From Thermodesulfobacteriota bacterium (GTDB lineage: Bacteria > Desulfobacterota > Desulfobacteria > Desulfobacterales > C00003060): 25,321 nucleotides of DNA. Numbering within the stretch: position 1 is the stretch's first letter; every line of letters starts with the position of its first letter. A program made the position numbers. The stretch lies in NCBI GenBank assembly GCA_034189385.1, contig JAXHVD010000034.1, positions 1 to 25,321 on the forward strand, read 5' to 3'. Of the stretch, positions 6,001 through 18,000 are shown one piece after another.

Positions 6001-9000
6001 GCACTTTCTGTCTTGCCGGGGACGATAGACGTCTGAGGTAAGGGATAGGAGGCAAAGGGATGGAAACGAATAAGCTCTACACGATAGTGACAGGGGCTGA
6101 GGGCAAAGAGGCTTCGCCAAAAGCGGAGCCGTCAGAGTATTTCTTGAAGTTGCCACCCCAAGAGGCCATTGCTGCGTTGCAGGCCCACCTCAAGTCACTG
6201 GAAGATAGGCTGGCTGAGTTTTCCAAGATAGACTTGAAGATCCCGGAGAACCTGGAAAAGGCGCGTGAGGTGTCGTTTGAGCTTGAGATAGCCGAAGAGT
6301 TTCTCCGTCGTTTCAAGAAAGCCCATGGGACGTCAGATTAGCATTTCCAATGCTTGGCGTGTCGATTTGTTTCTTGACAGATGATTCCGATGTTGATATA
6401 GATCCGTCGGTCAAAAGGAAATTCCGGTTCGTGACTAGACATGGCGCATTGTCATGTGGCTGCGAGGAGTCTGAAAAGGGACGGCCTCACAACCCTGAGT
6501 TGCGCTGGGGATTTCTTTTCGATCACCGGAATGCTTCGGTTTAGACTCTTGCTTTACCCCTGCATTCAGTGATTTCCCGCTTTAACTCCCTTCAGCTTGC
6601 TGCTCAGGGAGTCCTTTCGAAAATGCCAGGAGATATTTTCACACTCTTAAGTGCCTTGTTGGTGGGGCTTATTTTTGGGTTTGTCCTTCAGAGGGGCAGA
6701 TTCCGCTGCAATATGGCCTTTGCCAGCATGATCACCCCGAGAAAAGACTTCACGATATTTAGGGCGTACCTCCTGAGCCTTCTGGTTGCTATGCTGGGAG
6801 CAAATCTCATCGAGGATATTGGTTGGTTGATTGCCGTGGACCCGTCAGACGGAGAGGTTGTAACGAAAGCATTATATCGACAGGGTTTTGCACCAATTGC
6901 CAATATCGTTGGTGGATATATCTTTGGGCTTGGTATGGTCCTGGCTAATGGTTGCGCGAGTGGTATTCTTTACAGATGTGGTCAAGGGTTTACGGATGCA
7001 TGGTTGGCTTTTGCAGCTTTCTTCCTAGGTCTGTGTGTTACAATACACGGATGGCTAAAACCACTTTATGGGTTGTCCGCTTCTGTGATTGTCAGAGTCA
7101 ACGACAAGGTAAATCCCGCCCTTTGGGATCTTTTTGGCGGGGGTATGGCGGCGAAGTGGATAACCATAGGTGTCATTACAATCATCATCAGCCTCTTCCT
7201 CGTGCGTGGAGAGCCTTTTAAGCGGGCTCTGAAAGGGTATTACTGGTCAACAACGGGCCTGTTTCTGGGTGTGATCATAGTCATCGGGTGGTGGGCTTCC
7301 ACATACTGGGGGGGGCGGCCAAGGGGCCTCTCCTTTACAGGGCCGACGGCAGAGTTCTTTCTCAGCTTTCTCACGGGAGATCCAATGGTGGGCAGGACGC
7401 CCGTCTTTGATTTCTTTGGTCTGTTTCAGACGACATGGGCCTCCCTGTATGTCGTAGCCGTTCCTGTGGGGGCGTTCATTAGTGCAAAGTTGTTGAAGGA
7501 ATTTAAACTGTTTTTTCTTCCACGGGAAGAACTCCTAGCGACCTTTATTGGTGGGTTCATTATGGGGGTAGGTGCTGCCGTGGGACGTGGCTGAAACGTC
7601 GGTCATGGGTTGACCGGTGCGTCAACCTTGGCCATATCTAGTATCGTCACAACCATTTCTATCGTTCTTGGAATCTGGACGATGTTTTACTTCAGGTTCT
7701 TAAAGGAATGATCTCTACTCTATGCTATCATTCTAGTCGATGGTTACCTTTTTTGTTTGCTTTCTCCAAAGCTGATTCCAGCGGGCCGCCGGCCCTTCTG
7801 TCTCGCCAAAAGGAACATACCAAAGCTCCACATCAATATCCATTTCTTTGAAAAGAGGTTTTCCGTAGATTTCTTTTCCCTGTTCTATCTTTTCATATGG
7901 GAATGGAATCTCGAAGGTCTCTACCAGCGTGCGATAAGGCGGAAGGGCGGTGTCACGGATGAGGCCGGCCTTTTCGTAAGGGCCTCTGCCCATCTCTTTG
8001 CCACAGCCCATTTTTCCGGGAGCAGGCATATAGATTTTGGAACTTCTTAAAACTTCCTCACCATCAGGGCCCTTTGCGATCACATCCAGGATCATTCGGT
8101 TTGGCGTCGGTCAGCCATCCGGGATTTCGTGACCCGTCTTGTTCGTTAGCTCTACCCTGACCACTGCCAGAGGCGTCACCCCCTCCACCTTGTTTTTTCG
8201 CCAATAGTAGCCAAAGGCATCCACCTCAAACCTCAAGGCCGCTTCGGCCATGTCGGGATCCCGGTAGGCCGGCATAACATGCCCTTGATTGAGTTTTTTC
8301 ATATGGCAGGCCTGGCATGTTTCGTGACCACCTTCAGCAACGTAGGCAAATAAATAGCTTCCGTAAGCTGTTGCGCACTGTGAGGGCTCATCAAACTCAA
8401 AATTGGGTCCAAGACCGTGGCACTGCCCGCAGAAGACAGATTCATGCAGAATCGGGCTCTTTTTCATGACGGGATACTTCTCGTCCTCGTGCGCTCCCTC
8501 CTGTGTTCCATAAACGGCATCCTCTTGTGGGAAGCCTTGCGCCCACTTGTGAGTGATAGCTTTCGCCTGGTGGCAGATCAAGCAGTTGATGTTGATCTTC
8601 CTGAGCTTTTCTACACTCTGTTTTTTTGTTTCTTTGTCCCAAAGGCCAAATACTGCCTTGACAATTTCCTGTGCAACACTATCTGTGGCCTCTTCAAGCT
8701 GTGGCAAATGACACTTTGCACATAGCATGAGATGCTTCAGCTTGACATCCTCCGGTTTCTGAACCCCAGAATAGGGCCATGTCATCAGGCCTTTTGTAAT
8801 GGTGGTGCCTATGGTGGCAGCCGTTCTGGCCCCGACTCCAAATATGGATTTGGAATGGGCGGAAGCTTCCCATTGTTCATAGATTTCCTCATGGCATTCC
8901 TTACAGGAACTCACGTCATATCGTGCTGCCAGTTCATCTATGCTTCTTGCCTTCTTTCTTACAGGATCTGCCTTCGCATCTTGACATAGCATCATGAACG

Positions 9001-15000: not shown

Positions 15001-18000
15001 GGTAATATTACCTTCAGACGGGTTTCGGCGCCTGTTAGAAATCCTCGGCGCACCGTCCTTCAGCATGAATAACAAAGGGCCTGGCCAGAATGAAGGATAG
15101 AACCTCCAAGTGGGTGGCGTTGTTAGGCCAAGGATGATTGTTGCTGAGAGGGCAGACAGAAGACTTCTTCTGACCCGGAGTCGCAGTTGGTTATCATATA
15201 GGGTGGATGACAAATGGCTTGAGGTCTGGCCGCGTCTGCCAGGCCGGAGCTTTATTGCAAAGAAAGGAAAAGGGAATGGCCGTACCATCGTTGGAAGAAT
15301 TGTTGGAGCGTGGGAGGGCGTCTGCTGAGAAGGGGAACCTTTGTAGTCAGATTGTCTTGGATGTGGGTCTTGATTATCTGGGTGAGCTCAAAGCCGATGT
15401 GGTTAAGGCCGCTGGTGGATTGGCTGGCGCGCAAGGTTTCGTAGAGGTTACGTGTGGCGCTTTAACGGCAGCTGGAGTACTCATCGCAAGCGCTGCCATA
15501 GAGCGAATGGAGCGGGACCAGATGTATATGCTCATCCAAGAACTGGAAGAGCGATTTAACGAGGATATCGCGGCCCCTTATCCTGGCAATCGATGTGGTG
15601 ATTTCCTTGATGCAGACCCTAATAAGCTCCCCACAGAGGTGTGTCCGCCGATTATTGCTGGTGCCACAAAAATCGCACTGGAGCTGTTAGAAGAAAACGG
15701 CATTGGCCGCCATTAAGGCGTTCAACAAAATTGTCAGGCTATTGAAAACTTCTCGTTCAGCTCGAAAAAAAAGTCCCGCCTGACAACAGACGGGACTTTT
15801 AGTGACGTTGTTGTTTTCTATGAGGCAGGCATGTTGACCTCTTTCAAGTCATCCCCGAGATACTCACGCTCATTTGCTCCCAGAATCCCGAGGGACAAAC
15901 AGATCAGCGTCCACAAATGGACCGTTTGGTACTTCCCCTCGAAGTGGTGGGCAATATCGTGAATCTGTGCATGACAGTTGTGGCACGCAGCAACGCAGTA
16001 ATCAGCACCTGTAGCCACAATCTGGTCAAACTTAATCTTACCATAGGCCCGACGTTCATCGGCATACCCTGACTGGAGGAATCCTCCGCCTCCGCCACAG
16101 CAAAAATTGTTCGACTTGTTCGGCCACATTTCAATAAAATTCTCTTCTCCCACAACAGACTTGACCACAAAACGCAAGTCCTCTGCTACAGGATCACCGT
16201 AGCTCTTGCGAATGATCTGACAGGGGTCCTGCACGGTGAACTTGATTTTTCGATCCTTGTTCCAGTCGGAGTTGACCTTGAGCTTTCCTTCCCGGATCCA
16301 TTTGGCATAATACTGATAGATACTTGCTACTTCAAAATCGTAAGGGATCTTAAATTTTCTCAGTCCTTCCAGGACTGAAAAGGTAACGTGCCCTCATTCG
16401 GTATTGAGGTAGACCTTGCATCCCAGTTCTGAACACTGCATGATGCTGGTCCGTGTGACATGCTCCCAGGACTTGTCGTCGGCAAGGAACATGCAGTAGT
16501 TCTCTCCAGCCCACCCCTTGCTGCCGTATGTCCAGTCGGCACCAACAACGTTCAGGATTCTCCACAAGGGGATGAGTTCATCCGGTTCGGTGACCGGTTC
16601 CCGGGAATTTTGATTTAAGAAGAAATGGGCCCCCTTCTTATCTATCGGGGCCTGGAGCTCCTCCCAGCCCGGCTGACCTTCCCTTACCTCTTCGAGCACG
16701 TCTTCTACCACAAATGTGAAGTCCTCGGGAGATGCCCCCATGGCGCTACCGCTGTCATTTCTCAATGCCATATCGCATGAACCAAGGATCCCCTTTGGCC
16801 GCTCTTCACGGGGCCACGTGGCCCGGGCATTGTATACCAGCCTAGGGATATCGATCTGCATCGGGCAGGCATAGATACAACGCTGGCACCCAGTGCACAT
16901 CCATACCCAGGGTGATTTGACGGCCTCTTCATGCAGCCCGAGCAGGATCATCCTTAGAAACTTTCTGGGGTCCATGTCTGCAAGACCCGTGGCAGGACAG
17001 CCTGCAGAGCAGGTCCCGCAGTTGAGGCACAGATCCAAATTGCCCCCGCCGGGGATGACTTCCATGACCTCCTTTTTGAAACTTCTTGTTACTTTATCCA
17101 GATCTATTGCTTCTTCAGCCATAAGATCTACCTCCCTTTACACATTCTGAGCCAGGACAACCCCTGGCTTGTCGGTCTCGACCATCTCTCCAGGTTTGTC
17201 GAGGAAGCTGGCGTAACTGACGTCTACACCAAGCTTCTTTGCTGCATCTTCAACACTGGGCGGAACCTGGGGTTGGGTGAGGAGCACCACAAGGTCAAAG
17301 GTCTCGGTCTTTTCACCACCGTCATCGTACTTGACCTCAATGTTCTTGTCCTCTCCTGTCTCAGCTACCTCGATCACCGTGCCGTTTATAAAATTCACAC
17401 CAGAAACCTTGTCCAGATCCCCTCCAGCACTTCCCTTAAAGGCATCCATGTCCGGAGAAATAAAACTGATCTGGGCCCCGTCTATCTTTTTCTGGGCCAG
17501 TATGGCCTCGTTGACCCCAAAGATCAACGTGGCATCCCGGACCTTATCATCACCAGCGCCAAAGCTCTGCACAAAGCAGATCTTCTTTGGGATTTCACCG
17601 TCCTGGGGCCGCATAATGAGACCGTTGCTAGGACCCGTGTCATCCGCCAGCATCCTCTCCACCTGAAGATCAGTGACGACATTCATATGCTTGTTTCCAA
17701 CATTGCCCGAAATAGGCGCCACCCTTCGCTGCATTCCTGAGGTCAGGATGACTTTGTCAAAGGCAAGGTCAAAATCCTCATCGGGCATGTCAAAATTAAT
17801 CGCTTCGGGCTTACACTCGGCCCAGCACAGGGCACAACCCAGACACCGCCTGCAGCTTAAACAGCGCTTGGCCTCAGCCACAGCCACATCTTCTGGGAAG
17901 CCGGTTTCCACCTCTTTAAAATTGCCCTGTCTTTCCTCTACAGAGATTTCAGGCATCTCCGCGCGCTTAGACGGAATATCCTGAAAGTCGATAACGTATC

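Follow-up and report, generated by a model that had tools for sequence, protein, structure and literature searches.

The reference enzyme for the locus described here is MccSep (ExtKL, GSU2937-2936) of Geobacter sulfurreducens, for which structures are available as PDB 9WT8 and 9WT9 (Mihara et al., Sci Adv 2026, PMC13510729). In that paper, residues R83, H122, C239, U325, and K372 are reported to be needed in vitro and in vivo, the electron donor is described as unidentified, and ExtM, a Rieske protein, and quinol go unmentioned. ExtKL has also been noted in Seep-SRB2, a demonstrated ANME partner, while a table in the same study scores it absent from Seep-SRB1c, 1g, and 1a (Murali et al., 2023, PMC10553843).

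We evaluated an Ext-type cluster in a 25,321-nucleotide stretch of DNA, which was analyzed as a whole and is referred to as the window. The host is a sulfate reducer from the Seep-SRB1c group: its dsrA scored above the cut-off, and its genus includes the MAG 'Desulfobacterales bacterium C00003060', which was labelled Seep_SRB1c and placed in a clade termed non-syntrophic (Murali et al., PMC10553843). A 2026 paper treats Seep-SRB1c as a putative partner of ANME-1b, unseen by microscopy or in enrichment. The survey's finding that led to this work called the host a partner of methanotrophic archaea, a description that is weakened, given that partnership with ANME-1 is only putative for Seep-SRB1c, which was never observed attached to ANME. 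The gene is also already on record for this lineage: an identical MccSep sequence, plus further rows for family C00003060, appears in Data S1 of the MccSep paper (PMC13510729). The novelty is modest and lies in the accessory set around a catalogued MccSep gene.

MccSep and its selenocysteine

The genes of the cluster and two hairpins are as follows.

6623..7711, plus strand: YeeE/TsuA-family (Sulf_transp) membrane channel; Pfam Sulf_transp 146.5 bits, in-frame TGA at 7592-7594
7601..7633, plus strand: SECIS-like hairpin of the YeeE-like gene, 3' of its TGA
7733..9046, minus strand: MccSep/ExtKL, 437-aa five-haem cytochrome c selenoprotein; selenocysteine (Sec) at TGA 8111-8113
8077..8094, minus strand: SECIS-like hairpin of MccSep, 19 nt 3' of the UGA; 5-bp stem, loop CUGGAUGU
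9391..9627, plus strand: ExtJ, small exported protein; NCBIfam NF040942, 58.3 bits (cut-off 52.5)
9870..11714, plus strand: ExtM, cytochrome c with 12 CxxCH; NF040943, 1054.9 bits (cut-off 800)
11629..12900, plus strand: ExtN, cytochrome c with 9 CxxCH; NF040967 653 bits and NF040968 657.7 bits (cut-off 200)
12855..13247, plus strand: Rieske [2Fe-2S] protein, ExtO in Geobacter nomenclature; Pfam Rieske 44.2 bits
13255..13875, plus strand: ExtP, b6-like cytochrome b; NF040969 227.1 bits (cut-off 290), Pfam Cytochrome_B 130.1 bits
13872..14285, plus strand: ExtQ, membrane subunit at the subunit IV position; NF040970 183.1 bits (cut-off 150)
14261..15100, plus strand: ExtS, cytochrome c with 4 CxxCH; NF040971 329.9 bits (cut-off 100)
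15207..15716, plus strand: C-GCAxxG-C-C family protein (DVU_1555-like); Pfam PF09719 51.4 bits

The MccSep gene had been described as a 437-aa five-haem protein split at a TGA, and this was confirmed. The two open reading frames (8111-9046 and 7733-8095, minus strand) share a frame with one TGA between them, and read-through gives 437 residues with U312 and CxxCH motifs at residues 48, 109, 155, 206, and 244. The claimed match of the Sec peptide to Geobacter MccSep also held, with VELTNKTGHEIPDGUPTPNR identical to the published peptide at 16 of 20 positions. The product scored 564.5 bits against the ExtKL model of NCBIfam (cut-off 250). Alignment of residues 31-429 to PDB 9wt8/9wt9 (E 2e-152) and the retention of R74, H113, C224, U312, and K359 at the positions of Geobacter R83, H122, C239, U325, and K372 support the proposed orthology; Ala stands at the position of Geobacter C240, a non-conserved residue. 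Homology shows a predicted exported five-haem selenoenzyme built like the Geobacter polysulfide reductase, with an active site that would consist of the His/Cys-ligated haem 2 beside the selenocysteine.

SelA, SelB, SelD, and tRNA-Sec are all encoded in the host genome, which amounts to a full selenocysteine machinery, and a TGA is present at the Sec codon in 80 of 80 related loci. The hairpin 3' of this codon is weak by folding alone (z = +0.86 and +1.3 in two runs); its pairing is kept in 10 of 10 aligned sequences, with one compensatory swap between AU and GC (five sequences each). Seven of the 37 genomes of the genus carry the gene (the window's included), and the six other copies are 83-87% identical with one TGA each, in agreement with the survey. 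Two additional matches in the genus (G002 and G008, 18-20 bits) were discounted.

The bc-type module, the channel, and gene order

The NCBIfam and Pfam matches support a putative bc-type module like that of Geobacter, as had been suggested. Every Ext model exceeded its cut-off except that for ExtP, although NF040969 was still the best match of this protein, which has paired histidines on two helices at spacings of i/i+14 and i/i+15 (read by eye). The ATG of ExtQ (13872) overlaps the stop codon of ExtP. Two earlier haem assignments needed correction: ExtM, credited with 10 CxxCH motifs, has 12, the same as Geobacter ExtM (PMC5877670), and the nine-haem protein, labelled ExtO earlier, corresponds to ExtN of Geobacter, where the name ExtO belongs to the Rieske protein. 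The model named ExtO (NF040968) also matches ExtN, at the score listed above. The start of ExtN is uncertain, with an 86-nt overlap with ExtM. The Rieske protein has the motifs CTHLGC and CPCHGS, a likely start at ATG 12855, and an SRRRF twin-arginine-like motif. The C-GCAxxG-C-C gene is a conserved cluster member; it lies 3' of ExtS in four of the five genus loci covering that position, and immediately 5' of ExtKL in loci L012 and L014.

The TsuA-like neighbor was correctly placed in the Sulf_transp family, but its in-frame TGA had been overlooked, and three genes with such a codon lie within the window. The likely start is ATG 6623 and the true stop TGA 7709-7711, and Sec is U342 counting from GTG 6569. 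Read-through covers positions 3-328 of the 330-position TsuA profile at 194.5 bits (cut-off 400), compared with 54.4 bits for the YedE selenium-transporter models. U342, C47, and C129 align with Cys293, C22, and C91 of Spirochaeta thermophila YeeE (6LEO). The neighbor is a predicted selenoprotein, with Sec in place of the cysteine that faces the periplasm and captures the substrate. In four of four genus relatives, the TGA is retained together with the 37-38 codons that follow it; a Nitrospirota relative that adjoins MccSep (locus L139) has Cys (TGC) at this position. Folding of the 48 nt that begin at the TGA, a segment that includes the hairpin, gave -18.6 kcal/mol (z = -2.8 relative to mononucleotide shuffles), and the relatives' folds differ somewhat. 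In the genus, the gene is limited to the five genomes having ExtM with that end assembled, and ExtJ adjoins it every time, so that its link to the Ext genes is stronger than the survey had claimed. The nearest relatives of the channel are from Thermodesulfovibrionia and Dissulfurispiraceae, where Rieske, cytochrome b, TusA, and YeeE genes form an operon without a multihaem reductase; these four are consecutive in Nitrospirota loci L213 and L238.

The MccSep and bc genes are read in diverging directions, and the MccSep and YeeE-like genes toward each other, which excludes co-transcription in the present arrangement. In sister species, MccSep is the last gene of the operon, behind the C-GCAxxG-C-C gene. 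Because the genus loci are closely related (82-87% identity), their shared synteny counts as about one observation. Outside the genus, linkage of MccSep to Rieske and cytochrome b genes was found in a Nitrospirota locus (with an ExtI porin and ExtJ) and in one Thermodesulfobacterium locus, and is also reported for Geobacteraceae (PMC5877670). The examined flanks of 72 of the 75 MccSep loci outside the genus had no Rieske/cytochrome b homologue, so the bc module is not an obligate partner, and several of these loci are surrounded by housekeeping genes.

Polysulfide reduction and the alternatives

We consider it probable, though well short of certain, that this ten-gene Ext-type cluster serves a MccSep polysulfide reductase with a bc-type supply and a Sec-containing channel. 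MccSep would split polysulfide into sulfide in the periplasm, and could additionally reduce selenite. The membrane Rieske/cytochrome b module (ExtO, ExtP, and ExtQ) would exchange electrons with the menaquinone pool, and these would travel via the multihaem ExtS, ExtM, and ExtN to MccSep. The channel most likely moves sulfur (or selenium) species through the inner membrane, and would fill the place of the rhodanese ExtH and porin ExtI of the Geobacter cluster. The standard potentials are about -74 mV for menaquinone and about -260 mV for polysulfide/sulfide. The step from menaquinol to polysulfide is uphill at these values, so we infer both the physiological substrate and which way the electrons flow, and the module would need membrane potential, very low sulfide, another donor, or the opposite direction. 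Of the survey's proposal of polysulfide respiration through a quinol-linked bc complex, the MccSep orthology and the Ext module stand, but the quinol link is the part that this uphill step puts in doubt.

An unlikely alternative makes selenite (or tellurite) the physiological substrate: its periplasmic reduction would serve detoxification or supply selenium for the cell's large selenoprotein set, and the YeeE/YedE-type channel would import reduced selenium. A Rieske/cytochrome b donor fits such a high-potential acceptor, the NCBIfam title for the whole operon is 'selenite/tellurite reduction', three in-frame TGA genes occur in the window alone, and the genome's sole ExtI-family porin lies immediately 3' of YedF, 10 kb from selD. 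The channel does match the YedE models, but weakly compared with TsuA, and a K0.5 near 1 mM far exceeds the selenite expected in sulfidic seep sediment. Geobacter MccSep accepts both selenite and polysulfide (Vmax 59 vs 83; K0.5 0.99 vs 0.19 mM, respectively) but prefers polysulfide in vitro, and the mutant defect concerns S0 respiration (PMC13510729), whereas selenite and tellurite reduction were lowered in an extI mutant (PMC5877670).

We find it quite unlikely that the system runs in reverse or in sulfur disproportionation, with MccSep and the haem chain passing electrons from sulfide/polysulfide to the quinone pool and the channel bringing in sulfur, zero-valent or partly oxidised, for Dsr processing in the cytoplasm. 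Electron transfer from sulfide to menaquinone is downhill, and the operons of the nearest channel relatives fit this direction, but quinol oxidation is the normal role of Rieske/cytochrome b complexes, and the NCBIfam and Pfam matches in the cluster include no TusA/DsrE genes. The overlap of MccSep with SOR raised by the survey was supported (5 of 7 Ext-bearing genus genomes vs 4 of 30 others) and would suit this direction. The MccSep authors remark that thiosulfate oxidation chemistry of the TsuA/SoxAX type, taken in reverse, may be related (PMC13510729). All MccSep assays so far are reductive.

Finally, ExtKL is classed as a 'periplasmic electron carrier' and is highly expressed by Seep-SRB2 spp. 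1 and 4 in syntrophic growth (PMC10553843), but a role as a mere carrier in extracellular or interspecies electron transfer, as proposed for that homologue, is very improbable here: the proposal is older than the 2026 enzymology, Geobacter without extHIJKL is unaffected in Fe(III) oxide and electrode reduction (cited in PMC5877670), and the strict conservation of Sec and the haem-ligating Cys, with the TGA in all 80 loci, argues for catalysis. Where seep studies take phsA/psrA as their sole markers of S0 reduction, MccSep would be overlooked (bioRxiv 10.64898/2025.11.30.691342).

Comparison with known systems

The protein shares with Geobacter MccSep the five CxxCH motifs, IPDG-U-PTPNR, the haem-2 His and Cys, the active-site Arg and Lys, and an N-terminal export signal, and it belongs to clade 1 in that study's own table (PMC13510729). 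Identity is about 56% (223 of 399 aligned positions, hand count). The gene differs in being divergent from the bc genes, or last in the operon in sister species, and the host reduces sulfate, which Geobacter cannot. Compared with the Geobacteraceae extHIJKLMNOPQS cluster (Jahan et al., 2018, PMC5877670), ExtJ, KL, M, N, O, P, Q, and S are present at matching sizes, with haem counts for ExtM, ExtN, and ExtS of 12, 9, and 4 here and 12, 10, and 4 in Geobacter. The rhodanese ExtH and porin ExtI are absent from the cluster, with an ExtI-family porin elsewhere, adjoining YedF; the Sec YeeE-type channel and the C-GCAxxG-C-C protein are added.

Seep-SRB2 (Ca. Desulfomithrium, GTDB UBA3076) is likewise a seep sulfate reducer with a Sec-type MccSep (locus L178, 58% identical, with the TGA), but its gene lacks flanking Ext bc genes and has only a Rieske-like ORF nearby. 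The channel shares its fold family and three pathway cysteine positions with the YeeE/TsuA thiosulfate uptake protein of S. thermophila (6LEO; PMC7449682), but has Sec at the periplasmic capture cysteine C293. Its motif, GRG-U-N(V/I)GHG, differs from the GUxSG of the catalogued 'YeeE/YedE selenoprotein' family (PMC13188914). In contrast to YeeE/TsuA systems, a YeeD/TsuB partner gene is not adjacent, and the scores are far under the TsuA equivalog cut-offs. Periplasmic, quinol-linked polysulfide reduction is carried out in Wolinella succinogenes by PsrABC/Sud, a molybdopterin enzyme system unrelated to MccSep. The two would do the same proposed job with unrelated enzymes.

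The MccSep gene and its selenocysteine codon

Seven features of the window are needed for what follows.

165-981, minus strand: four tRNA genes in a row (Rfam)
4406-6341, plus strand: SidJ-related pseudokinase gene and a 93-aa ORF
6623-7711, plus strand: YeeE-like (TsuA-like) channel gene with an in-frame TGA
7733-9046, minus strand: MccSep (ExtKL), a selenocysteine cytochrome
9391-15100, plus strand: Ext cluster (ExtJ, M, N, O, P, Q, and S)
15818-17122, minus strand: HdrC-like and HdrB-like ORFs
17138-23221, minus strand: run of HdrA-like, MvhD, GltD-like, and HdrA-fragment genes

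The MccSep selenoprotein described in the survey's finding is confirmed. A single TGA separates two in-frame ORFs on the minus strand (8111-9046 and 7733-8095). Their read-through is, as had been claimed, a 437-aa protein with five CxxCH haem c motifs (residues 48, 109, 155, 206, and 244); its selenocysteine (Sec) is residue 312. The match of its Sec peptide to that of Geobacter MccSep also holds, with 16 of 20 positions identical to the mass-spectrometry peptide. The product scored 564.5 bits against the NCBIfam ExtKL equivalog NF040886 (cut-off 250), and the MccSep structures 9wt8 and 9wt9 matched residues 31-429 (E 2e-152), with an identity of about 56% by hand count on that alignment (223 of 399 positions). 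U312, within IPDG-U-PTPNR, aligns with Geobacter U325. Judging from the alignment, all residues that the authors of the Geobacter study showed to be important are kept; C240, dispensable in Geobacter, is replaced by Ala.

Table. Residues of Geobacter MccSep and their counterparts in the window protein (alignment to 9wt8)
Geobacter residue: window residue
R83: R74
H122 (haem 2 ligand): H113
C239 (haem 2 ligand): C224
U325: U312
K372: K359

The Sec codon was TGA in 80 of the 80 related loci fetched, a set that holds no Geobacter locus, the search peptide patterns being absent from Geobacter. The genome encodes SelA, SelB, SelD, and tRNA-Sec, and SelD itself has a TGA. A 5-bp SECIS-like stem with the loop CUGGAUGU lies 3' of the MccSep UGA and can pair in each of the 10 homologues aligned, among which one pair exchanges AU for GC. 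The folding energy of this region was unremarkable in two computations (z +0.86 and +1.3), and the support for a SECIS element here comes from the aligned stem, not from folding energy alone. The N-terminus is hydrophobic and ends in AKA-DP, as seen by eye in the sequence, and the Data S1 entry with the identical sequence gives the location as 'Periplasmic' (PMC13510729). Homology indicates an MccSep-type active site, probably on the periplasmic side.

The YeeE-like channel and the Ext genes

The neighboring YeeE-like ORF, a member of the Pfam superfamily Sulf_transp, halts at a TGA (7592-7594), beyond which the frame stays open for 38 further codons, to 7711. The read-through spans the TsuA profile end to end and falls below both NCBIfam TsuA cut-offs (194.5 bits versus 400 and 101.9 versus 645). 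The pathway cysteines C22, C91, and C293 of Spirochaeta thermophila YeeE (StYeeE) align with C47, C129, and U342, so that the window channel carries Sec where Cys293 stands in StYeeE. The passages of PMC7449682 on C293 describe it as conserved and essential, located in the periplasmic indentation, and holding thiosulfate in the crystal. The TGA and the codons downstream of it are kept in four of four relatives from the genus, a Nitrospirota relative has TGC at the Sec position, and a hairpin lies 3' of the TGA (-18.6 kcal/mol, z -2.8). The transporter is the second selenoprotein of the window. No YeeD/TsuB (TusA-like) partner was found next to the gene; the 93-aa ORF upstream is cysteine-free and had no Pfam match at E 0.01. 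In the YeeE-like protein of a sister species (G009; L122:1345-2433), Leu replaces the first pathway cysteine (window C47), whose StYeeE counterpart, C22, is the one dispensable cysteine.

A third selenoprotein is probable. The HdrC-like and HdrB-like ORFs at 15818-17122 are a single frame interrupted by a TGA (U243 in NTE-U-GH), and the read-through is a 434-aa TmcB/HmcF/DsrK-like Fe-S protein. At every genus locus seen, its gene adjoins the Ext cluster. Current annotation still breaks at the TGA in MccSep and in the YeeE-like gene alike.

Within the Ext cluster, ExtJ, ExtM, ExtN, ExtQ, and ExtS all exceed their curated NCBIfam cut-offs. ExtM has 12 CxxCH motifs, not the 10 first counted, ExtN has nine, and ExtS has four. 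The survey's finding had placed nine haems in 'ExtO'; the haem count stands, and the protein (11629-12900) is ExtN in the Geobacter nomenclature, where ExtO is the Rieske protein. The label came from NF040968, the ExtO model, which scored 657.7 bits on this protein against 653 for the ExtN model. NF040968 is described as 'b-type cytochrome iron-sulfur cluster-binding subunit ExtO', a name that apparently belongs to another protein. We saw no Ext-specific Rieske model, and our assignment of ExtO is drawn from the Pfam Rieske match and both cluster-binding motifs; the protein starts with a twin-arginine-like SRRRF. ExtP, a b6-like cytochrome b, scored below its cut-off (227.1 bits versus 290), this being its top match with the whole profile covered. 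The last plus-strand gene of the cluster, beyond ExtS, encodes a protein with a C-GCAxxG-C-C motif.

No ExtI porin is encoded in the window, and the window ORFs scanned gave no rhodanese match for ExtH. Searching with an ExtI profile (NF040900, taken from a Nitrospirota locus), we found an ExtI-family porin on another contig of the genome (164.9 bits versus 150). It is the only one in the genome (contig C29:20855-22804, or 11856-13805 of the fetched locus L207) and lies directly downstream of the selenium-metabolism gene YedF, about 10 kb from selD, a neighborhood that hints at a role of ExtI-type porins in selenium uptake.

Linkage, distribution, and host

Close ExtM homologues occur in five of the 37 genomes of the genus, the same five and no others that have the YeeE-like gene, next to ExtJ each time; in two other genomes MccSep sits on a short contig ending inside ExtS. 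Two gene orders were seen. One, that of the window and G035, has an inverted MccSep with the YeeE-like gene on one side and ExtJ on the other. In the second, that of G009, a single strand carries the YeeE-like gene followed by ExtJ, M, N, O, P, and Q up to a contig break in ExtS, and then come ExtS, the C-GCAxxG-C-C protein, and MccSep; a short contig of G007 shows the start of this second order, and those of G016 and G020 show its ExtS-to-MccSep end. Because these genomes are close kin, synteny within the genus amounts to little more than one observation.

At most loci MccSep lies among housekeeping genes. Outside the genus, a YeeE-like gene is immediately downstream of MccSep at one of 75 MccSep loci (L139), and a Rieske gene is nearby at three, two of which also have an ExtP-like cytochrome b; one of these two has ExtI and ExtJ as well. 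The YeeE-like genes from beyond the genus cover 76 loci; two of these, in Nitrospirota, are operons of Rieske, cytochrome b, cytochrome b C-terminal part, TusA, and YeeE genes, and a third locus has ExtP nearby. Independent cases of such linkage are few but real. Neither of the two operons, from Nitrospirota MAGs (L213:5879-9041 and L238:60-3300), includes a multihaem cytochrome, and another Sulf_transp gene lies close by. This union of a bc-type complex with a sulfur importer and carrier appears to be undescribed, and the repeated tie in Nitrospirota points to an unstudied coupling of sulfur import to bc-type complexes.

The patchy distribution of MccSep in the genus (7 of 37 genomes) suggests either acquisition or loss. 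We sought an empty site for the island borders via the upstream SidJ-related gene and found no clean one, given several paralogues and short contigs. The SidJ-related pseudokinase gene (NF033874, 642 bits) and the 93-aa ORF precede the YeeE-like gene in four of the five genomes, and the fifth contig begins within that ORF. A second paralogue, of a type found in most genus genomes, lies on contig C2 (53% identity). On the other side, the HdrA-like/MvhD/GltD-like run may encode a flavin-based bifurcating complex and is part of the genus core genome rather than of the Ext island. Relatives of its HdrA with 78-88% identity, 'Desulfobacterales bacterium C00003060' included, occur in genus members without Ext, and for this reason we rejected a functional tie of the Hdr-like genes to Ext. 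The exported SOR, encoded elsewhere in the genome, is present in 9 of the 37 genomes, including five of the seven with Ext. These counts fit the earlier remark that a subclade combines both, with the reservation that those genomes are kin.

The survey's finding called the host a partner of methanotrophic archaea, which goes too far. The genome with the 'Desulfobacterales bacterium C00003060' HdrA and G002, labelled 'same genus' in the genus search, share one weak match at identical contig and coordinates. The host genome has dsrA, and its genus holds the C00003060 MAG, which the supplement of Murali et al. labels Seep_SRB1c, a clade called non-syntrophic in the parts of that study concerning it (PMC10553843). 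In a 2026 study, the relevant passages present a Seep-SRB1c MAG (GTDB g__C00003060) as a putative ANME-1b partner in a biofilm, never confirmed by microscopy or enrichment. Partnership of this host is therefore a hypothesis rather than a property, and the ecological claim rests on a suspected ANME partner.

Possible function and relation to published systems

We consider it probable, with some reserve, that the cluster reduces polysulfide. Electrons would pass from the Rieske/cytochrome b module to ExtS, ExtM, and ExtN and on to MccSep; everything past the MccSep-type active site we infer. Standard potentials are about -74 mV for menaquinone, -260 mV for polysulfide/sulfide, and +210 mV for selenite/Se0. 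On these values transfer from quinol to polysulfide runs uphill and would therefore need help from the membrane potential or very low sulfide; otherwise the cluster would serve selenite or run from sulfide to quinone. Selenite service, which the potentials favor, is the best placed of the alternatives and still unlikely; polysulfide would be the preferred substrate if the enzyme behaves as in Geobacter, where K0.5 is 0.19 mM for polysulfide and 0.99 mM for selenite (PMC13510729). Reverse operation, downhill from sulfide towards quinone, or disproportionation comes close behind in our ranking and is likewise unlikely. That ExtKL is a plain electron carrier, as Murali et al. read the strongly expressed Seep-SRB2 homologue in the section concerned (PMC10553843), we regard as very improbable for a protein that appears to keep the MccSep-type active site.

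Beyond polysulfide reduction as such, it is conceivable, at long odds, that a Seep-SRB1c subclade built a route of its own by which zero-valent sulfur passes from periplasm to cytoplasm. MccSep would cut polysulfide, the bc-type complex would couple the cutting to the quinone pool, the selenocysteine-tipped YeeE channel would carry a sulfur intermediate inward, and the exported SOR would complete the set. If so, this route and the strongly expressed homologue of the proven partner Seep-SRB2 would supply a Psr-independent enzyme for the long-disputed methane oxidation linked to polysulfide or S0, one overlooked by seep studies that score phsA/psrA only. Methane-seep work gauges S0 and polysulfide reduction by molybdopterin Psr/Phs genes and has yet to consider MccSep, which is present in Seep-SRB2 and part of Seep-SRB1c. 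In the part of a preprint on seep sulfur intermediates that treats S0 reduction, for example, the process is scored by phsA alone, and MccSep and ExtKL go unmentioned (bioRxiv 10.64898/2025.11.30.691342).

MccSep had already been recorded in this lineage. The string C00003060 occurs eight times (order and family rows) in Data S1 of PMC13510729, and one of the three C00003060 rows shown is identical to the window protein over the part shown, classed as Sec-type, clade 1, and periplasmic. Data S1, as far as displayed, has many rows for UBA3076 (Seep-SRB2), some for DG-60, and none for C00003106 (Seep-SRB1g) or B13-G4 (Seep-SRB1a). The table of Murali et al., in the portion on ExtKL, lists it in seven of eight Seep-SRB2 species and as absent from Seep-SRB1c, 1g, and 1a (PMC10553843). 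The main text of PMC13510729 mentions neither ANME nor syntrophy, ExtM, Rieske, or quinol, and among relevant literature matches the name MccSep occurs only in that paper and its preprint. The enzyme and the cluster are known, and the 2026 paper that described the family already catalogues this exact sequence, so the gene call itself adds little.

YeeE/YedE, too, is already catalogued as a selenoprotein family, with the motif GUxSG in the entry concerned (PMC13188914), from which the motif of the window channel differs. Set against the Geobacter Ext cluster, whose ExtM, ExtN, and ExtS are given 12, 10, and 4 haems in the relevant part of PMC5877670, the window agrees in ExtM and ExtS and has nine CxxCH motifs in ExtN instead of 10. 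The Sec-containing YeeE channel and the C-GCAxxG-C-C protein take the place of the porin (ExtI) and the rhodanese (ExtH). Overall, the Ext cluster of the window is of the Geobacter type, with this modest variation.
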